64,000 nt of DNA from Hydrolagus affinis (taxonomy: Eukaryota), in NCBI GenBank assembly GCA_012026655.1, contig JAAILG010000810.1, positions 1 to 64,000 on the forward strand, read 5' to 3'. The notes beneath the pieces were generated by a model that searched no databases, was not told where the DNA came from, and saw only the letters and a list, made by a program, of their open reading frames with translations. Shown piece by piece: positions 2,379 through 60,530 of this stretch; the first letter of the stretch is position 1; each line of letters begins with the position of its first letter. The translations under genes were made by a program, and so were the position numbers.

Positions 2379-5300
2379 GTAAGTGCTTCTGGAATGAAGA
2401 AGCAGGAAAAATGTTATTGCGTTGACATCGTTATGTGAGAATGTTACTCAGTGCAATGCTATGCACATTAACACATTGTTTCATTGAATCCTCTACCAAT
2501 CGGGTAACACTCACCAATATCTTCAAATCTCTTGACAATGTTGTGTTTACTATTGTCTCCAATTCCTCTACAGTACAGCATAACATCAGGTCTGAATCTC
2601 TTGAGAAAGCCCATTTGGCTTTTCCTCTGGTTCTTTCAGTCATGAAAGAGCTACGATTTGTTAACCCCTTGCTAGGTGTAACAAATAATAGCTCTTTCAT
2701 CTTCTGCTTTCTGGAATATTGGTTTGTATTAGCTTCAATTTAAACTATTTGTTGGATACACAGCTTATTTTGTGTAACAGAATCTTATGTGAATTATGTT
2801 TGAATATTAACACTTAAGAGGAGAAAATCCTGTATACTCTACAATTACTCAATGTTATAGCCTTTCAGAATTTGATGAATGCTTATATACTGCCTTTATT
2901 TTGAAGCTAATTTTCTGTTATCCATCCTCAACCAAATTCACCCAATTAAAAAATAATAATAATAATTTGGCTATGATTTTGTTGTTTGTTGGAAGTTCTG
3001 CGAGCATAATGGCTACAAATTTCAGCGCCTTGGGACATCCTCCTGAAGTGAAAGGCACAATGCAAATGTAATTGTTGTTGTTGCAAACAGAATTACTCAG
3101 TCACTTAAAACTATTTACACTCAAGAATTTGAAAGATGTCTTAAAGTGTTAAATAAGGTGCTATGCAAAACAAAATGTAAGTTATTCCTTACTTACCAAT
3201 GCTAACCGTGGTTTATTTGTGTGGTAAGGGTATAGTTAGATAGAAGTTTAATTATCTTTACGTCATGTCTGTTTGTATTGTTTGGGAAAACACTAGAAAG
3301 ATTGACTGACTCAGCTGTTGTATGTCATGGTATTACAGTTTGTGTACAATGTCTGTAATGTGTCTTGAGCCTCTCACTGCCATTGTTTGGCTCAGTAAGA
3401 TGATCCAATAAAGTTTAATTGTGTAAATTAATTTCACGTTTCACCCATAAAATATACAGTCAATAGTCAGTATATACTATGAAGCACTTTGAGATGTCCC
3501 AACGATATGATGAGGCACTAAACCAAACACAAGGATGATTACTATGAATTTGACACTGAATTTAATGCACTGTGAATCAACTATACGGTCAGCAACACGG
3601 ATAAACATTGATGGTCTCAATACATTTATGAATTAAATGCTAACAAAATGCAAAATACTGCAGATGCTGGAAATCTGCAACCAAAACAGAAGTATCTGGG
3701 AACACTCAGCAGGTCAGGCAGCATTTATGCATCACTTTCCTTTCTCCATAGATGCTGCCTAAATTAAATGCTGCAGTTCTGTATTTGCATCTGTATAGTA
3801 TTTTCATTTCCCTGAGGTTTTTCATACATTTTCCTTGTTGCAGCCTCAGTGAACGAGCATGTGACCTGCTCTTAGGACTCTGACAATGGTGTTCTGTAAA
3901 TTACTTCTCAAGGATGCCCAGGAGACTGATATGAATGACTATTGTTTTCTCTCCTGGGTGGAAAGCACTTGGCGTCCACCCAATACATTCTATCAGACTG
4001 GGAATCCATCATGTCAATCATCTCAATCACCAAATGGCAAGTCTCCTTGCTCTTGGAATGGAACCTTAGAAGTGCTGAAATGCCAAGTCAAAGATAGTAT
4101 GAGAGCCGATTGACAATGAATCTAAAATCTATGGGTTACAGCTAATAATAGTTTTTCATTGTCTGGCAGTCCTTGTAGAATCATGGGCTAAGAGGTAGAA
4201 TGATCTACTTAAATTGGGTTTGTGGGATATACCAGGACTGAATGACAGGAGGACATATCTTAAATGATCAGGCCTACAGTATTTCCTATTCAATTATAAG
4301 CTAAATTATATACGATACAAAATTACATTTATATAGTGCCTTTCGTGTCCCCAAGGCACTGGACAGTCAAAGATTTGGACTCATGCAAGGTGGAGATTGG
4401 GATTAGGGAGTGTGGGAAATGTGATTAGGGAGGGTGGTCAAAGTGGAGGACCTTGAGATTAAATTTAATTTACAGCCTCGCAGATCGGGTAGACTAGGCA
4501 GAACACAATGGCTGAGTCAGTGCAGATGGTGCCTAAAGGATGCAGTGTAAGGGGACAGTGTCTTGGACTCCACACAACATTCGGAGTAGTGTCCTGGATA
4601 GGCATTAAGACTTACCTTTTCCTTTTCACCCACTCAGCCGCAGTGAGCAGCATCAGCCTGTTTGGTTACAATATTTTCTCAGTGAAGAAGACCAGTAACC
4701 CTGAATTTTCAGCACCCTGCATTGTGGCCATCAGTGACCAATATCTAATGGTCATAAACAAGGATTCCAAGGTACAGTAACATTAACATAACCAACATCT
4801 CGGCCATCTGTCTCTCTATTAAAGCCTTTCCTATACATCAGGGCGATGATGAGGAGCGGGGTGGGGGTGGGGAATAAGATACCAATGACATAACATATAC
4901 TGCAGTAGCGCTGGCTGTGATCACAAGCAGCGGAAAGGCAGTCACGACACACATGACGACAGATTATGGCCATATTCCAGTACTGCCTATTATAGAGTGA
5001 ATCCAAAGTTGTTTTTATTGATGTTGTTGGTAGTGCGAAACACATTTACACAGATCTGCACAATGTTTTACAGGACCAGATCATCACAATCCCACTGAAA
5101 GAAATCATGACAATGCGTACCTTACGCCCATCAGATTCGTCAAAATTGCCTGGGGTGGAAATTAATTATAGCGTTTCCCGGACACTTTCCTTTGAACTAA
5201 GAAAGGTAGGAACTGGGTTTGTAGCAAAAATAACTCATGTTACGGGAAACATGTACTAACTTGAGATTTTTCTGTATTAATAATATTCTGAGAGTTTTAG

Positions 5301-8530: not shown

Positions 8531-27944
<19,414 letters not shown>

Positions 27945-28098
27945 ACCGCCGGCCGGGAGGGAGGGAGGGAGGGGCCGCCGCCGCTCCGGGGGCCGGGGCT
28001 TCGGCCTCTCTCACCGGGGAAATGTGGCGCGTTCGTGGCGTCACCCAGCGCATGCGTGCTCGATGCCTCTGACGCCATCGACGTGCGACGGTGGGAAG

Positions 28099-28177
28099 AT
28101 GGCGGCGAAGCGGAACGTCCTGTCCTCGCTCGCCGCGTATGCGGGCGATTCGGAGCCCGATTCGGACGTCGAGCCAG
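28099..28177 (+). CDS. SAP30BP: SAP30BP exon 1
   Basis: [26 protein letters not shown]; donor after 28177 or 28189. Confidence 0.9.
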
Positions 28178-37100: not shown

Positions 37101-40100
37101 TTCCCCCACAAATTATTTCACTTCATTTCACTTTATAGTATATTCTGTGATGCTCTTTGAGAGCCTTGTTTCAAAGGCGTGAAAAGGCGCTATATCAAAT
37201 GCAAGGATTACTACATTATTATAATAATTATAATTATTATAATATAGTATTATAATGTGACTCATTACCTGTTTCTACATAGCTGTTCAGTGTCGGAGCT
37301 TTGCTCGTCTCCTCTGAAAGCCTTTAGTTTTAAAAATCATAATCATTTTGCATAATGATGTATGTAAAAACTTGTAGCGCACAGGAAAACATCTACAAAT
37401 TTCACACGGGAAAACATCTACAAATCTCATGAGTCTGAGTAGGAGCCTAAACAGTATTGAAGGTGGGAGTGGGAGGTGACAGAAGCAAAGAGGGAGGATG
37501 CACGATAGAGGAATTTAGGGAGAGGAAAGTTTTTGGAAGGAAGCAGAAATAACACTAGAGTTCCAATGTCTCACAATCTTTCAACTGGTCAGATTATAGG
37601 AAAGCGTGAAACGAGAAAACCTCATTGAGCACAGTTGCCAGAATGTAATCCTACCCACCATAGACCCAACCCAAAGCATTTCATCTCCCGAGGAAACTAA
37701 AGATTCTCTTGCCCTCAAATATAAATGGTGCCAAACTACAGAATATCTTGTAACCCTGTATCCTACAACCTCGTTGTGATGTTTTAATGTGTTTCTCAGT
37801 GAGAGTGCTGTCCTCTGATGCACGGTGAAGAAGCCCCAGGCTAGAGGAATCTGAGCCCTCTCCTTGCCTTTGAAATGTCTGGAGTAGCAGTGCGTGGAGT
37901 TTGGGAGCTTGATGAATGGGTTTTGAGGGAAAAGTATTATTTAGAGAGGAAAGTTAATAAATGGGCTGCCAGGTGAAAGCGGCTAAATCCTTTTCACAAA
38001 CCTGCAGTAGTAAATCTTGTTTGGTGGGCAATATAGATAACAGTGGGTTGTGTAATATGCCGCAGACTGGTTTTCAAGATCCAATGATCTTTTGGCACAA
38101 GTACCTGTTTCAAATTTGATCCTTTCTCCCCTGCCCCCCCCCCCCCCACACACACACACACACACAGTGCAGGTGCTGTGTTTTCTGAGTGAATACCTCT
38201 ACTGTTTTGTGACTGGATAAACACTTGTGTCCATTTATTTGTGTGATTATAGTTGTAGTTTTCCTGAATCTCAAACCATTCTGTGCCAGGAAAGTCTTTG
38301 TCTCTATTTCCATCTATAAGTAGCCTCATGGACTTACCTGATTCATGGACATACATACTCTTTTCTTCTCTCTCTCGTTTCCCAAGACCAGAGTTCACAT
38401 TAAAAGCCCTGCTACTATGGTGTCTTAAAATACAGGCGACATTACTTAGTGTATCAGCAAACATGATTTTCGTCTGTTACATTTTCACTCAAGTACTGGA
38501 TACAGTCTATGATAATACAGTACCAATACAATCATACCAGTCATACACTGCTGGATGTATCTGTTCCCCACTGTGTTATGTAGCAATGTTGAATGAAGGG
38601 ACTCCATCCAGTCTGTCCACTGACTGAAGTGTTTTCATTTCTTTCAGGAAGTTCTTGATGTGGAAAAGAAGAATCCCCAGGAGCTAGTTGGTACGTAACA
38701 AATGGCGGGGAAAAGGGGTGGTGGTGGTGGGGGGCACATGGCTGCAACATGCCAAATCAAAGGGAAAATCTTCCTTATTTCGGGAAGAGAATTCCCATTC
38801 TGCACTTGTGTAATCTGCATTTATGATAATAATGCTTGCATTTTGATATAGCGCTTTTCATATCTTCTGGACGTCTCAAAGCGCTTCACACAATATACTG
38901 TAAAGTGAATTGACTGTATATTTGTGGGCGAAACACGGCAGTTGCGCACAACTGGGTCCCACAAACAGTCGTGGATTGAAATGGCCAACTTTTTATTTCA
39001 CTGTTTTTAATAATCTGTGGACGATGGAGTTATGGCAATTAGCCACAGACTGGTGTGCAAGATATGATTCTTCTATTCTGCGTCTATCATAAACAGATTT
39101 AATCAAGGTTCCAAATGAGTCACATGTTTCTAATCACCAAAACCTCAGACAGTTCTTTGCGACATTTCTGCTTTTGAGGGTGTGTTTGTGTGAGACTGTG
39201 CAGCACTTTGTACCTTTCCTTTGTACATTTAAGCTCTGCCCTAAACTTGAATGACCAAGAAGGTGTTACCTTCTACCTTTCTCCGATCACAGCTTCAAGT
39301 GTTTTCAAAAAAATATATATTCAGTGTGTTATCCTCAACTATCCGTTCTTACAACCTGTTATAGTTGGTAATTATCCTCTGAATAAAGAAAAACTTCCTG
39401 GTGAGACCAAGATTGGGCTTTTGTCAACTTGTTCTACAATTTTGGTACATTCTTTACGTATTGTTCTGGTTTTTTTTTAATTTTGTGTAAAATTTGATAT
39501 ACCTCTAGAAGATCCCCTCTGAGACACGTTCTCTCATTATAACAAACCTTGCATTTGATATAGCGTCCTCGAGATGTCCCAAAGCGCTTCACAGAATATT
39601 CTGTAAAGTGAATTGAGTGTATATTTGTGGGCGAAACGCAGCAGCTAATTGCGCATTGCAGTCACCCACAAACAGTCATGGATTGAAGTGACCAAGTTAT
39701 TATTTGTATTTTTTTTCTTGATGGATTATTATCAGGTGTGTGGAGTAAGGAAAGTTGCCCAAGGGTTTTCCCTGCCAGGAATTGAACCCAGGTCTCTCAC
39801 TTCCAAGTGTTCTAACCGCTGAGGTACAGGACTGGTCTATTTGTTGCTCTTAGTTTGTTCTTCTAATACTGACGATCAGATTTGTTGGGCTTCTCTGCCC
39901 CTCTTCTAGGGCCCTTACGTCGCAACCATTAGAACTCTGCCATACTCAAGGTGCAGTCTGACTTGAGCATTACATTGCCTCACTTACATTTGGTAATCTG
40001 AACACAACTGATTTAGCAATCTAGCCAGTGTTTTGTTTGCCAAACAGTGCCAAGTGCATCCGACAATATTCACAATGGGAAGCTACAGAGTTTTAAATGG

Positions 40101-46100: not shown

Positions 46101-49100
46101 CAAAATATACCGTCAGTTCACTTGAGTGCATTCTGTGGAGCGTTTGAGATGTCTAGACGATGTGAAAAGCGCTATAACAAATCCAAGTATTATAATAATT
46201 TTAAAAATTACATTTATATAGCACGTTTCACGTTGGGTGAGGACAGTGATCGGGAGAGGGTAAGTCCCAGGGTTGCTCCTGGGTCAATGTACAGGATGTT
46301 GGGTTTGTTTCTCTGCTGTGTGCCTCCATTGTGTTGATGTACATTTTCTCTTATGTAGCGTCTTTTTCAGAGAAAGTAAGAAACATGTCTCCAGACGACA
46401 TCAAAATCCCTCCAGAGCCTCCGGGGAGATGCTCTAACCATTTGCAGGTACAAGTCACTTTGGCCAGTCCACGGCTGGCATAAGGTGTTGTAAGAGAGGA
46501 TGAGCTCTGTGGCTATCCAACCTACTTCTCCAACGCTTTCTCTCCTTTTACTGCTTGTTTGCATCATCACATGTTTAAAGGCATTAATCTAACCATTGCA
46601 TCTTCCTAATAAGCCTGCATCACCTCCAAGCTTGACTGTTCAAATTACCAAAATGCAAAATACTGCTGGAAATCAGAAGCAAAAACAAGTGATTGGGAAC
46701 ACTCAGCAGGTCAGGCAGCATCTATGGAGAGAGGAAAAGTGAATCAATGTTTCGGGACCGCGATCCTTCGTCAGAACTGAGTGGACCTGAAACATTGGCT
46801 CGCTTTTCCTTTCTCCACAGATGCTGCCTGACCTGCTGAGTTTCCCAGTGACTTTTGTTTTTGTTCAAATTGTCTCCTTTCGGGCTTCTGCAAAGCCACA
46901 ATCCACAAGCTCCAGTTCAGTTTAAACTCAGCCTCAGTTTTAGCCTCACATGCCCTTCACATTCACTGGCTCCCTTTCTCCAGCAGATCGACTGCATGAT
47001 TCTCATCCTCCATTACAAATTAAGGCCTTGCTCTTCTGTCCCTGTTATCTTCTCCAGCCTTATTTTCTTGCTCTCCTCTCCATGTACACGTGGGCATCTT
47101 CCTTGCCTCCTCTGCCCCATCAAGGTGGCCACACATTCAGCCACTGAGCCCCACCCTCTAGAACTCCCTGACTCAACCATTCGTCTCAATACCAATATAT
47201 ATATATAGGAAAGCTGCCTTTTAAATATGAATCTTCAGAACTGTATTCCGCCACCCTACTCAGTATCTGCCGTCTCTTTAAAGTGTAAAGGGCTGTAGGT
47301 AAATGTAAATTGTTTAAGTTAGCTGTAAGTTAGCTGTATGCAGCAATCAATGGATAACAGTTGGGAATGGGAATCATGACTGATTTTTCCATCGCCCATT
47401 GAAGTCCTTCCAGAGAACTGACATCATTGGACTTCACAGTCGACTTCAGATAATTCAGCATAACCTAGGAGTTAACTCTATGCAGTTCAGTGGCAAAAGC
47501 AACATATGAATTTAGATCTTGAGACAAAGGGCAAAGTGCCTACAACTAAATTAAAACATTTATGTTAAAACCAACTTCACAGAAATGAAAAACTTAAAAC
47601 ATAAACAAATTCTTCCATTGATTTTATATGCTGGGTGTTTGCAGTGTAGGTGTGAATAGTCCCCACTCTCCCAAGTAGAACTCCGTTCATTATGAAGTGA
47701 GTGATGCTGCTGTAACAAGTCTAGTGGTTGTGTGCTTCTCCTGCAGTAACACATCCAGTGCCTGAGGCTGCATTATTTATTGTGAGTAATGGATTGGGCA
47801 CTGGTGAGGAATGTGTTAGCCAGGTGTGACTTGTTCATACTGCTACAGACTGTAGAGACACATCCCTACTCACAACACACACCCAATCTGCATGTATCCC
47901 AAAGCAGAAGGAAATACAGAATGATAACCTCTCAATCACTTCCCCACCTTCCAGCCACCTACCTTTTTCATTAATCCCTCCCACCCCTCATCTCAGCTCT
48001 TATCCACACAGTGAGAGCCGGTGAGGTGAGGGATTCACCTATAGAGCTGCAGGGAATGTATATGTTGATTATGTGGGATTACCAAGTACAGACACACCCT
48101 CAAATTTGGCTCTTTGCCAACTCAGCTCACTCAGAGGTTGGGAAGGCTCTGGGGTGTAGCCTCTATTGCAAAAATTAAAGGCATGCTCCAGGATTTCCTG
48201 TGACTAGACCTTCTTTAATGTTGAGCAATTTCTATTTGGTTTTTCTTCTAATATTCAATTTTTTTTTAAAAAAAGAACAAACTATTCCTCACTAGTATGT
48301 GGCTCTGGCTGAGTCGCACAGACCAGGAAAACTCCAGGTTTGATTCCAGATCTTTGACCAGTTAACCGATCTCGGTCTGAGTTACAGCAAATGTCCTGCA
48401 ATTGGCTTCAGTGTCTCTGAGCTAAGAGGAGAGTTATCAGTCAGGGTTTCTATCTCCGAACCAGCGGCCGTTTCAGAAAATGCATGTGTGATCCCTGAAA
48501 AGGATAGAAAGTGCACACCAAATGTGAGGCACACATACCTGCAGAATGATAACAGATTTAGGATTCCCTGCTTGTGTTTTGTCATCCACCAGTAGTATTA
48601 GATCCCTTTGCATGCTCACCTAAGCCTTTCCTCTGTCTCTGTAGGAGAAGATTCAGAAGCTGTATGACCGAAAGCTGCATGAAGGACTTGACATGAATAA
48701 TATCATTCAGCGCAAAAAGGAATTCCGTAATCCCAGGTCTGTACTCTCTGTCTCTGTAGGACTCTAAGGCTCTCTAACTGTTTGGTTATTGGGAGGTGGA
48801 TGGCTGTGTGTGGGGGGGGGGGGGGAGAGAGAAATAGCCCGCTGGTCTCCAGTTTGTGTGAAAGGAGAAGATGTAAAGGGGCAAGGCTGTGTACCTCCTC
48901 TGTGCTGTTGACAGTGTGGTCTGATTTGTATGAGGTGTACGGTTTAACAGCTCACTATTCTCTCTTTCAGCATATATGAAAAACTGATCCAGTTTTGTGG
49001 CATTGATGAACTTGGTACCAATTACCCCAAGGTAAGTGTGGCTTCAACCTCCTCCTTTTCAGTGGAAGGCACTAATGATGCGCTGCGCACCTTGTAGCCA

Positions 49101-52130: not shown

Positions 52131-52136
52131 AATAAA
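52131..52136 (+). terminator. Proximal candidate polyA signal of SAP30BP (distal AATAAA at 53137-53142)
   Basis: AATAAA about 510 nt after the stop. Confidence 0.55.
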
Positions 52137-52348: not shown

Positions 52349-52539
52349 AAACGCAAAATACTGCAGGTGCGGGAAATCGGTAGCAAAAACAGAAATCGCT
52401 GGTAACACTCAGTAGGTCAGGCAGCATCTATGGAGAAAGGAAAGTGAAGGGCCGTGAACCTGAAATTCTTAACTCACTTTCCTTTCTCCATAGATGCTGC
52501 CTGACCTGCTGAGTGTTTCCAGCAATTTCAGACTTTGTT
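52349..52539 (-). mobile_element. Palindromic Penelope-terminus insertion
   Basis: TSD ACAGTACTAAACAG at 52335-52348 and 52540-52553; ~56-bp inverted arms. Confidence 0.78.
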
Positions 52540-54559
52540 ACAGTACTAAACAGTATGTGCAATCTCAAGTTTTTTTTTCCCCCACGATATTGTAATTACG
52601 ATCAAATGGAATTTTCTGGCCTCTGCTGTAAATCCCAGAACAATGGAAGCAACTGAAAAATGAACAACAGGGACTTACCTCTCTGATAAAAGAACTCAGC
52701 TTGTCTCGGCTGGGAGTGAGGGAGCCAGGAATCCAAACACAACAGTAGGGGGCCATTGCTCCTAGACCTCCCAAGAGTAGACTGAATGCTGCGACAGTTG
52801 CCCCTTCTCCACTGAGAGACATCCGTCACCAATTTGTACAGTAATTCTGAATTGTATATGTAGAGTAACAGATTTATGCAGGGATTCTGAAGAGTAAATT
52901 CTACGCAGTAATTTCATACAATGTGGCGAGTGTAGGTTGTTCTCATTTAGTAGGTCATCCATTCCTGCAATGCTAAAATGTGAAAGTTAAAGTGTTTTGT
53001 GCCTCTAATTGACTTTGTGAGGCTCCGAACAGCATTGTGTGCCTTCTGACGTGGCCCTGGGCGGAAGAAGGAGCCAGAACATCCTCAGGAGTGATTTTCC
53101 AGCTACTTGTTATTCTACATGTTCACATCAAACTGAAATAAAATATTTCATATCCATTATTTAGCTTGTTTTTACTGAGCCTTCTAACCACTACCTGGGG
53201 GTAGGATGTGATTCCCTTCAACGTGCAGTGATTTACTGTATGTAGCCTGTTGCCAGGTTCCCAACTCATCTACCTACTTACACTGAACGTATAAGTGCAA
53301 AACAAAACTGGATTACAATTGATAGAAAGACTGAAAGAGCTTTTTTATTTGTGGGTCATAATTTATCTTCTTAAATGAAATTGCGCTATATATGGATGGC
53401 TTCCTCAGATGGACTGATATTAGGTGGGGTAGCTTATTGGGGCTCTATAATTGGACTCAACGCTTGGACTCCAGTGTAGGGAGGAAAAAATAAAGCAAGG
53501 CTCACTTCCTGATAGTTATCTTTTGGAAGCTACGAGTGAGGAGAGGATTAGGCCTTATTCTCCTGAGCCTGACAAAACTCTTCAGGAGAGTAAGAGGAAA
53601 GGGGGAGACATTTAGAGGAGGAAACCATATATAGTTTGGGACCCAACATATTAAGTGACTGCCAGGATGGTGGAAGGCAAATTAGATGACCTAGTCTTCG
53701 TTCCCTTAGCACCTAGCAAATTCTTATGTTCTTACTTTGATATCCCTTGACAATGTACAAAAGGTATGTCAGTGTTTAGTGTTGTTTAACATGAGAGAAG
53801 CAAGAAAATGTGGCTACTGTCGGCAAACAGTGAGTTAGAGACTCCCATGCAGAGAGTAGAACAAAAGAGATTTACAGTGAATGATAATGGATAGAAAGAG
53901 GCTGGGAACAGCAGGAAGACAAAATACAGTGACCAAGGAGCAAAAGGACACACAGCCCAGCAAATTAGACATTGGAAACGTGAGAAATATTTACATCAAG
54001 AAATGGTCATGAGTTGGGAGCATTTTCCTTTATTTCCTTTTTCTACGAATATTCTGTCCAACTGTTTGCGGGACGCTGGTCGGCACAATTGGCTGCCGCA
54101 TTTTATTATCTATTTCTCAGATACAAAATAATTTCACAATCTCTGAAACTGGGCACACAATGCTCAGTACAAAACAAACAACCGACCTTCTTATCTGAAT
54201 CTATTGGTCAACATCCTGTCTAAGCTAAAATAATAAGCGCTTATAATAATCCTTGCATTTGATACATTACTTCATCTCTGATCTTGAATGTGACCCTACA
54301 TGGAGGCTGTGCATCACTACTGTCTTTAAGCGCTCTGAGAGGCCGTCTGGCATGGAGGGCACTGTTATAAATCCAGGTTGTTGGTGTTGTACTGAGAAAT
54401 GTTGCATAACTGGCAACTGCAATCATAGGGATGTTAGCCAGATCGCAAAATGCATGGATTCTGGAATTCCTGCATTAAGTTCTCTCAGGAGACAAACAGA
54501 AATCCATCGTTAGGGAAATAGATGATGGAAACTGACTGGGCAAGCAACCTCAATTTGCG

Positions 54560-54950
54560 ATAATTTCAGGCTATAACAGCTCACCTTCCCTTTCTTCTGT
54601 GACCACCTGGTCTGCCCGTTCTCTTGCAGTTTCACCCCTCCTTTGTTTTACATGATTAACATCTCTCCAGTTTTGTTGAAATCCTTTGTTTTAAACCAAT
54701 AACACCTCTTTAAACCCATCATCTCCTGTCCTCTAACCCATTTTCTCATCTTGTCTTCCTTGCCCTGCCTTGCCCCTCTCTGTTAGGCCTCTCCCTCCCA
54801 ACATGACCCAGTGCTGATGAAGGGCCGTGGACCCGAAACGTTGACTGACTTCCCTTCCTCCATAGATGCTGCCTGACCTGCTGAGTGCTCCCAGCAAAGT
54901 TTTGTTTCAGATTTCCAGCATCTGCAGTAGGTATTTTGCGATTTTTGTTT
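54560..54950 (+). mobile_element. Penelope-like element 3' end / pseudo-LTR with hammerhead motif
   Basis: CT-rich tract, then CTGATGAAGGG..CCCGAAACGTTGACTG, then the terminal ATAGATGCTGCCTGACCTGCTGAG...CCAGCATCTGCAGTA segment shared with five other copies in the window. Confidence 0.7.
54809..54847 (+). ncRNA. Minimal (Penelope-type) hammerhead ribozyme motif, slightly degenerate
   Basis: CAGTG-CTGATGA-AGGG(CCGTGGA)CCC-GAAA-CG-TT-GACTG: core boxes, stem II, minimal stem III, stem I CAGT/ACTG. Confidence 0.65.
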
Positions 54951-55635
54951 CCAGGCATTACAACACTGACTGCCCAGAGGTTCGGCATTGAGAGCCACAC
55001 CTGTATCTGAGAGTCAGCTTCATCCTTGTTTCATTTACTCCTGTTCCAGAAACACTAGGACTGTAATCGTTTTAACAGTACCAGCTGCACCACCAACTAG
55101 TAATTTTGTCTTGAATTCCTGGACATCTTGTGTGCATAACCTTACATCTGTGATTCTGTTCCTATAAGAATCTCTCTTGCCAGAAATCTCAAACACTACG
55201 CACCAAAATTACTGAGTTGAAGGAAACGGCTGAAGAAAATTTGTCCCAGGAAAGCATGCGAACACATGAAACCCAAGACATAGCTTGCCAAAACTTCCCT
55301 TTGTACCGGGCACTCCCATATCACGTTAAACAAATCCCCCTCAGCACATGTCTTTGGCTGAAATGATGAGCTTGTATCCGTCTTTGCTGTAACCTATTTT
55401 AAAGATTTGAGAATCTGCATTGAAACATAATAAATCACTGTTTGATTTAGCTGTAAACATCAAAATTGCTCAAGCAATTGCTATCAGGTGTATTAGCTAT
55501 ATTCGTAGGCAAAAATTGTAACCGATTTACACTAGCAACGTACATAATAATAATAATAATCCTTGCGTTTGATATAGGGCTTTTCACATCTTATTGACGT
55601 CTCAAAGCGCTTCACAGAATATACTGTAAAGTGAA

Positions 55636-55679
55636 CAAAACACAAAATACTACAGATGCTGGGAATCTAAAACAATACC
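55636..55679 (-). mobile_element. 44-bp Penelope-terminus fragment inserted into a SINE
   Basis: TSD ATACTGTAAAGTGAA at 55621-55635 and 55680-55694. Confidence 0.75.
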
Positions 55680-56374
55680 ATACTGTAAAGTGAATTGATT
55701 GTATATTTGTGGGCAAAACACGGCAGCCAAGTCTGGGAGGCACTTTCTGAAAGAGTGGTGGAAACAGCTTCAACAGCAACCTGTATTGTGTCTCGGGAGC
55801 ACAGCGCCTAGCGGTGTCAGAGCTCAAATCCAAGCCAGGTCAGAGAGGAAGATCTAACATGACCTGAAAATAGGGAGAGAGGGGACAGGACAAAGGGATT
55901 GAGGGAGAGAGTTCCACAGGTTTGAGACACATTGGCTGAAACTCATCACCATTGATGGTGGAACAGAGGGTCTAGGGATCAAAGAAGAGGCCAGAGCCAG
56001 GAACAAGAACTTTCAATACCAACTTTCAAAAGGGAATTGGGTAGGTACTTGAAAAGGAAAACAACTGCAAGGGTATAGGGAGTGGGACTGACTGCGGAGC
56101 TCCTCCAAAGTCCTGGCACCGTCACAATGGGCCGAATGGCCTCCTCCTGTGCTGTAATACTCCATGCTTCAATGATATTGCTGTTTGTGAGTGATTGGCA
56201 GAGAGAGTTCCAGATTTCCACCACGCTTTGTGTGAAAAAGGCTCAGGGTCACAAAGCCACTGATTCAAAGGCACCGGGGAAACACTACACCATGGTGATG
56301 TCAAGTGAGTCACCAAAACATTGAAGAGTAACACAAAGGGAAGTAATTCTTTTTTTGTCAGCTGGGTACCTCAC

Positions 56375-60409: not shown

Positions 60410-60530
60410 GTGGAGTCCTGTAGCTCAGTGGTTAGAGCACTCGCCTTACAAGTGAGAGACCTGGGTTCGATTTCAGGCAGGGCAAAATCTTGGGCAAGTT
60501 TCCTTACCCACACATCTGATAGTAATCCCT
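60410..60530 (+). mobile_element. SINE tRNA-like head (Pol III A/B boxes)
   Basis: TAGCTCAGTGG ... GGTTCGATTTC followed by SINE body, so not a real tRNA. Confidence 0.8.

Follow-up and report, generated by a model that had tools for sequence, protein, structure and literature searches.

A drifted minimal hammerhead motif in the pseudo-LTR of an abundant Penelope-like retrotransposon of Hydrolagus affinis

The motif at positions 54809-54847 of the Hydrolagus affinis DNA analysed here (a stretch of 64 kb, the window) is most probably a drifted, likely inactive minimal type I hammerhead carried by the pseudo-LTR of a Penelope-like retrotransposon that is abundant in the genome and likely of the Neptune/Nematis type. 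It is considered genuine because of the evidence from its family and not because of the letters of a single copy; in fact, the single stub that carries it (54553-54951) is one damaged copy among thousands and is of no importance by itself. The motif class, its position, and its abundance are already described (PMC4209133; review PMC6155905); the fresher point is that nearly half of the sampled family copies begin at the first bases of the motif and not at its cut site.

The motif and the damaged stub

All the letters of the hammerhead claimed in the original prediction are found on the plus strand exactly as given (Table 1). The copy shows the CUGANGA and GAAA boxes, a UH triplet, the unpaired base, a G10.1-C11.1 pair closing stem II (G54822-C54834), and self-complementary positions 15.2-16.2, which are features of minimal hammerheads, and it lacks a helix I of 4-5 bp closed at positions 1.1-2.1, where stem I ends next to the core in the mismatch G54813·G54843.

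Table 1. Features of the stub, of its hammerhead motif, and of the other family arms in the window
Feature	Position	Strand	Basis or detail
5'-truncated Penelope-like element, about 400 bp: ORF end, 3' UTR, hammerhead, tail	54553..54951	+	homology to L015, L022, and L025 from 54553
Last five ORF codons and stop (DNFRL-stop)	54559..54576 (stop 54574-54576)	+	translations of the stub, L005, L012, and L015
Pyrimidine-rich 3' UTR / upstream part of the pseudo-LTR	54577..54808	+	alignment with family copies
Stem I, 5' strand, CAGTG	54809-54813	+	sequence
Core box CTGATGA (CUGAUGA)	54814-54820	+	sequence
Unpaired extra A between positions 9 and 10.1	54821	+	sequence
Stem II	54822-54834	+	GGG 54822-54824 with CCC 54832-54834
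Core box GAAA	54835-54838	+	sequence
CG-T-T	54839-54842	+	sequence
Self-complementary ACGU, would form stem III between two copies	54838-54841	+	sequence
GUU cleavage triplet; predicted cut 54842/54843	within 54835-54842	+	numbering by analogy with PMC4209133
Stem I, 3' strand, GACTG	54843-54847	+	sequence
Conserved downstream part of the pseudo-LTR and optional tail of about 35 bases (about 54911-54951)	54848..54951	+	3'-end clusters of the family
Head-to-head pair	46657..46871	.	its minus arm, from 46781, is besides the stub the sole one in the window to keep both core boxes
Head-to-head pair, both arms cut into the motif	52354..52560	.	profile search
Head-to-head pair	26996..27181	.	plus arm with A-U closing pair of stem II (subfamily C), without CUGA box
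Head-to-head pair without ribozyme part	3651..3762	.	profile search
Tail-only fragment	55643..55682	-	profile search

The two core boxes taken alone are within chance in the window: the pattern CTGATGA-N3-30-GAAA matches four times, two of these matches overlapping each other, where 1.93 would be expected, and four matches are reached in 16 of 100 shuffled sequences. The fold of the 39-mer (-6.3 kcal/mol, z 0.31) is no better than that of shuffles. The Rfam search proposed together with the prediction returned no hammerhead family for the window (E<=5), for a 101-base stretch around the motif (E<=10), or for a well-preserved relative; the library is therefore blind to a motif of this kind.

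The stub is 77% identical to a related locus (L022) over the aligned positions 54562-54929, and its 3' end (about 54951) coincides with the second T-rich end cluster of the family. No target-site duplication was seen by eye around 54553-54951. Its reading frame ends in DNFRL-stop versus NFRP-stop or HFRP-stop in relatives, and no other ORF remnant is found in the 64-kb window by tblastn (best E 0.44).

The weakening by drift that had been suspected is borne out by the substitutions seen against 29 other aligned copies, which hit the cut-site pair and stem II. In particular, stem I loses its closing pair, at the predicted cut site, through T>G at 54813 (T in 28 of the 29 copies), and T>C at 54825 generates a C·A mismatch in stem II, where three pairs and one C-G pair remain versus five pairs in the family, the hairpin energy being -1.7 kcal/mol in the stub and -5.8 in the subfamily majority. 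A third change, C>G at 54847, happens to give stem I a fifth pair (C in 24 of the 29). The 3-bp stem II and the stem I mismatch described in the prediction are thus present in the stub but do not belong to the family design, in whose majority stem II has 5 bp and a 3-base loop and stem I has 4 bp; judged from the aligned sequences, both are damage and not design.

The copy at 54809-54847 is likely inactive because of the G·G mismatch at the cut site and because no intact hammerhead partner on the same strand exists within the 64-kb window; the nearest same-strand family piece lies 2.4 kb from the stub and has no CUGA box. With the stem I pair at the cut site gone and stem II reduced to about one-third of its stability, the stub would most likely do nothing. 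In trans hammerheads, a mismatch just 3' of the cut site slows cleavage at least 500-fold, and the fastest triplets are GUC and GUA, not GUU (review PMC3138052); in the minimal hammerhead of Schistosoma, a lone copy is not cleaved and dimers are cleaved at a low level (PMC4209133).

The six family copies initially counted in the 64 kb correspond to six insertion sites in a repeat profile search of the window, but these comprise ten arms in total: four head-to-head pairs, the single arm at 54553-54951, and a tail fragment. Both core boxes are kept in two of the ten arms, namely the stub (+) and the arm at 46781 (-). The Rfam miRNA matches in the window are false, being head-to-head pairs of the hammerhead family (e.g., 52354-52560). 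This same pair, with arms of 68 bases, lies about 220 bases past the AATAAA at 52131 and would form a long hairpin in read-through RNA. Other repeat families are denser in the window, with up to 22 copies (e.g., 13801-13925, 38823-38998, and 55544-55757), some of them with a tRNA-like part on the opposite strand, and a tRNA-like stretch lies at 60414-60485; these denser families are probably SINEs. The window also holds a RecQ5-type helicase gene (Pfam RecQ5, DEAD) at 11830-12474 and 26333-26962 on the minus strand, head to head around 27800-28100 with a plus-strand gene for an HCNGP-domain protein (about 28100-51620), which we take to be SAP30BP; RECQL5 and SAP30BP presumably stand head to head in human as well.

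The retroelement family

In the 1.11-Gb assembly, whose contig C810 begins with the window, the hammerhead core pattern has 2,520 exact matches versus none for the reversed control, and two 28-mers from the downstream part have 2,716 and 3,972, all these exact counts being lower bounds. Membership in a Penelope-like element, as proposed, is sustained by the pseudo-LTRs, the tail, and the ORF ends: a zinc-finger or GIY-YIG-like end lies upstream of the motif in six of the eight translated loci (L005, L008, L012, L015, L022, and L024), with broken frames in all six, while the remaining two are a mere piece (L009) and the stub itself (L001). The description of the motif as an element terminus holds for the stub, but most family copies are short pieces starting at the 5' edge of the ribozyme.

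The upstream ORF expected of such a family is recovered as well, with a reverse transcriptase (RT) and a GIY-YIG-like end. A search with an RT-thumb remnant as query gave 150 scored matches among 1,174 candidates, and the terminal repeat lies within 1.5 kb in 25 of 30 loci taken from this protein search. RVT_1 is matched by L049 (487 aa, E 1.5e-6, with YIDD) and L041 (E 3.1e-6), with scores just under the curated cut-off (28.6 bits for L049 versus 29.6). Pfam GIY-YIG has no match on the ORF remnants of the family itself, four short remnants giving nothing usable; L043 is 59% identical over 404 aa to a protein (P0001) across the GIY-YIG match of the latter, which passes the Pfam cut-off, and the motif YCIRC..LLYIGET of GIY-YIG type is present in the family ORF end. 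Between RT and endonuclease, the linker CQRRRCNTC (C-x4-C-x2-C) is found in all three proteins checked. A CX2-5CxxC linker marks Neptune and Nematis and is absent from Penelope/Poseidon (PMC8557442); the element is likely of the Neptune/Nematis type, a label given by this one linker motif and not by an RT tree. Among the eight protein relatives recovered, five are assigned to cartilaginous fishes. Two database proteins that match the family ORF bear other names, a kinase-domain isoform (P0004) and a receptor-transporting protein (P0005); these names are probably annotation errors since P0004 reads as a Penelope-like ORF throughout. Identical matches in opposite orientation occur at both ends of two contigs (L051/L052 on C7797 and L058/L059 on C4288), possibly as an assembly artefact.

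The order of the unit is hammerhead, tail, 5' UTR, ORF, 3' UTR, hammerhead, and tail (L091, L134-L136, L140, L141, and L143), with at least about 300 bases of tail and 5' UTR between the hammerhead motif and the long reading frame. The upstream repeat of L091 comprises the 3' part only, and L136, L140, and L143 keep the upstream motif, with the ORF jumped out of; no complete element with both motifs was found among the family stretches examined.

Three subfamilies are set apart by loop II (56 of 60 loci classed, four being "other"), and each of their majorities pairs fully in stem I (4/4) and stem II (5/5), so that the family consensus with intact stems anticipated by the prediction does exist. 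In the family alignment of 61 sequences (58 distinct), 88.3% of the cells are paired (helix I 84%, helix II 92%), a value reached by none of 500 shuffles and compared with 10-46% in slid controls, although this alignment (A1) is biased towards structure because it was picked on the core and two pairs of stem II, including the closing one. The genome-wide counts of the stem II closing pair are free of this selection bias: GC 2,520, GT 612, AC 93, and AT 122, with 22.6 AT expected (odds ratio 5.4). The AT class mostly has its own loop and therefore counts as a single compensatory event within a single master lineage. Pairs changed on both sides are no more numerous than in shuffles (329 of 500), and the other changes between subfamilies are one-sided with pairing kept (C-G to U-G and U-G to U-A); the covariation read from these sequences thus appears modest, namely one two-sided change fixed between subfamilies together with one-sided ones. 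Subfamily C (L304-L333; 27094 in the window), in which A-U replaces the conserved G10.1-C11.1 and U-A closes stem I, looks more decayed than subfamilies A and B. A search for other hammerhead families with a longer stem II gave 51 matches versus 38 in the control, mostly indel variants of the present family.

In all the subfamily majorities, the most stable predicted fold is not the catalytic one but one in which the core pairs with itself; the energy gap between the catalytic dimer and the dimer minimum is 11-14 kcal/mol in the majorities and 17 kcal/mol in the stub. These modelled energies would fit a motif that is off by default. The core, ACGU, and both stems are kept together in 19 of the 224 sampled copies described below.

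Ends of the genomic copies and the start of the RNA

The ends of family copies were mapped in 160 stretches at places listed by the two downstream 28-mers (60 loci and 100 stretches for 140 further places). These contain 225 copies, 172 with the exact anchor and 53 with up to four mismatches, of which 224 were aligned; copies near the ends of stretches were skipped and are uncounted. Sampling is independent of how far upstream a copy reaches because the anchor lies about 45 bases downstream of the core, whereas the two arms of a head-to-head pair were counted separately and hence are not independent.

Counted from C3, 99 of the 224 5' ends (44%, interval 38-51%) fall at -6..0, the 5' edge of stem I; the others lie at +1..+25 (56), at +26..+32 (13), later (8), at -59..-7 (28), and at -60 or beyond (20). 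The stop rate per base is 0.096 at -6..0 versus 0.003-0.028 in all the other bins, with the cut-site bin (0.009) resembling its neighbours. An inverted arm is present upstream in 123 of the 204 copies that stop short of -60, and the peak at -6..0 persists in copies without it (37 of 81). Of the 118 sampled copies extending to the 5' edge, 53 keep an intact core.

Only two of the 224 copies begin at +28/+29, where the cut is predicted (95% interval up to 3.2%). Genome-wide, a pattern test for breaks at +29 to +31 gives 29 of 71 matches with GA versus 42% expected under equal break rates at the three places (p 0.62), and the removal of 15 likely short internal deletions gives 29 of 56 (p 0.09), with no significant excess at the cut site. 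A rough upper figure for a cleavage footprint is 2.8%, and a footprint of 1-2% could still exist because, among the 30 of these 71 matches that were examined as loci, many are deletions or inverted-arm joints with microhomology. Since copies start at stem I and rarely at the cut site, they would be mostly copied from uncut RNA, and it is likely on these sequences that the family is propagated in this way. Indirectly, the genomic ends support in vivo what was found in vitro, namely that uncut RNA serves as the template (PMC11167929).

The same ends name an exact start site: the family RNA likely starts at the first bases of stem I, with A54810 as its likely first base, a start deduced from DNA ends alone. 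The boundary sequence CCAGTTC presumably fits the initiator consensus. In Drosophila, Penelope has an internal promoter with an initiator (PMC2377424). At -5, a possible cap-derived G accounts for 7 of the 14 bases other than C. Stalling of RT at the hairpin was rejected by reasoning as the cause of the 5' boundary, since a stalled RT would stop on the 3' side of stem I and not on the 5' side.

The 221 3' ends form two clusters, at +94..+106 and +125..+139 from C3; in the anole element, the tail pattern is tied to two internal start sites of reverse transcription (PMC11167929). The stub is one of the 20 of 224 copies that reach beyond -60, and such a reach implies a template running from the 3' UTR into the motif; either a circle or, in a full transcript, the downstream repeat would provide it. 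The place of the donor varies among six ORF-to-motif junctions, GT follows in none, and 0-13 unmatched bases lie between; these junctions look like template jumps from the RNA 5' end and not splice joints. In L136, L139, L140, L143, L133, and L055, a 5' element piece is joined at varying places to a second copy starting at stem I, with few unmatched bases and with the two motifs 440-1,120 bases apart on one strand.

In the mechanism proposed here, transcription would start at the first bases of stem I, so that the full transcript would carry one hammerhead at each end. Two U-rich sites, located some 95-135 bases downstream of each hammerhead, would serve as alternative starts of reverse transcription, which would usually run through the uncut motif: a start behind the first hammerhead would generate the common short copies beginning at stem I, and a start behind the second one would generate copies reaching the 3' UTR, among which the stub would have broken off at the ORF stop codon. 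As papers on other elements suggest, cutting by an intact motif would require two copies paired through ACGU and would be either slow or assisted by an element protein. The role of the hammerhead in Penelope-like elements is stated as unclear (PMC8557442), and a further proposal is offered tentatively, as one possibility that we rate below even chance: the hammerhead might mark the RNA start and stay mainly uncut, with the 5' and 3' motifs pairing via ACGU to hold the ends for template jumps, and with a rare, protein-gated cut that regulates the RNA instead of making template. If true, cutting would remove a capped piece of 33 bases, and the RNA start would be recorded, as in a fossil map, by thousands of copies in the genome.

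The boundary at stem I could alternatively be a 3' splice site, or a preferred nick of the endonuclease in the element's own repeat, and not the start of transcription. A pyrimidine tract and CAG do precede the core, and in Penelope of Drosophila virilis an intron terminates where helix I begins (PMC4209133), but the six junctions, with their variable donor, missing GT, and unmatched bases, are at odds with splicing. Nor is there a constant upstream exon in the 31 copies that lack an inverted arm, which show mixed bases at -10..-6 and keep C at -5, A at -4, and G at -3 in 17, 20, and 25 cases, respectively. The nick form recalls the anole endonuclease, which nicks close to the junction of its own ORF and pLTR (PMC11167929). 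Overall, this explanation is considered unlikely, and a start of transcription at stem I is preferred.

The two other alternatives concern the motif itself, and both are far less probable. That the stub still cleaves or is kept by the host, cutting read-through RNA and helping termination, is suggested by its place behind the plus-strand HCNGP gene (exons at 48630-49088), which it follows in sense orientation at a distance of about 3.2 kb from the stop codon (51618) and 2.7 kb from the first AATAAA (52131), by its intact core boxes, ACGU, and triplet, by the chance fifth pair, which strengthens outer stem I (-4.5 versus -1.1 kcal/mol), and by the distribution of its differences, 2 in 37 ribozyme columns versus 20 in 116 elsewhere, the 20 including alignment noise at the 3' end. 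This is nevertheless very unlikely, since the two changes hit precisely the cut-site pair and stem II, no intact same-strand partner is present in the window, and an intact core is common by chance, as the 53 of 118 copies indicate. Still less credible, to the point of being nearly dismissed, is a chance arrangement of hammerhead-like letters in a repeat end never selected as RNA structure: the empty Rfam search, the folds of stub and majorities, and the lack of any cleavage footprint found among genomic copies would agree with it, but all the listed features of minimal hammerheads occur in order at the place where Penelope-like elements carry them, and the changes among the three subfamilies (G-C to A-U, C-G to U-G, and U-G to U-A) keep both stems paired. 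A drifted hammerhead of a Penelope-like family thus remains the favoured reading.

Comparison with known systems

A search for a paper on this family, or on a 5' boundary at stem I, found none, most subscription journals, Repbase, and supplements (which may hold shark or chimaera entries) lying outside its scope. The closest class is that of the minimal hammerheads of metazoans (Cervera and De la Pena 2014, PMC4209133), with which the family shares the core boxes, the unpaired base between 9 and 10.1 (a conserved feature of that class), a helix I of 4-5 bp, the lack of helix III with self-complementary positions 15.2-16.2, the location in the terminal repeat of an element with RT and GIY-YIG domains, and the occurrence as thousands of dispersed single copies and opposite-strand pairs. 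The differences are a helix II of 5 bp versus 7-8 bp in Schistosoma and, in one subfamily, A-U in place of the conserved G10.1-C11.1 (PMC4209133). The hosts named in the portions of that paper considered here are fishes, coelacanth, frog, and reptiles, with cartilaginous fish not among them.

The element PAc of Anolis carolinensis, a Poseidon (Frangieh et al. 2024, PMC11167929), is similar in its two 3' ends about 35 bases apart (the tail) and in copies made from uncut RNA, with no ends at the cut site reported in the parts of that work used here. In vitro, uncut RNA is the main substrate of PAc and cleavage occurs only with added protein; in the same parts, no RNA reads end at the cut site (PMC11167929). 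In contrast to the Hydrolagus affinis family, in which at least about 300 bases lie between hammerhead and reading frame, the ORF of PAc starts inside stem II and its tail lies within the ORF; moreover, PAc belongs to Penelope/Poseidon and has no linker zinc finger, whereas the family has the linker, and the PAc report, as far as it is drawn on here, maps no 5' boundary at stem I (PMC11167929).

The family resembles Neptune/Nematis elements (Craig et al. 2021, PMC8557442) in the GIY-YIG-like C-terminus, the CX2-5CxxC linker (CQRRRCNTC), and the DKG motif, as well as in 5' truncation, partial tandems, inverted 5' copies, and the optional tail; head-to-head pairs and tails are described in Penelope-like elements (PMC3846280, PMC8557442). 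Non-LTR retrozymes, reported in one cartilaginous fish (Li et al. 2026, 10.64898/2026.07.22.740005), are likewise type I hammerhead units with short non-coding copies derived from Penelope-like pseudo-LTRs. They form tandem arrays with the motif in at least two consecutive units, whereas the stub is a single arm joined to a 3' UTR and an ORF end.
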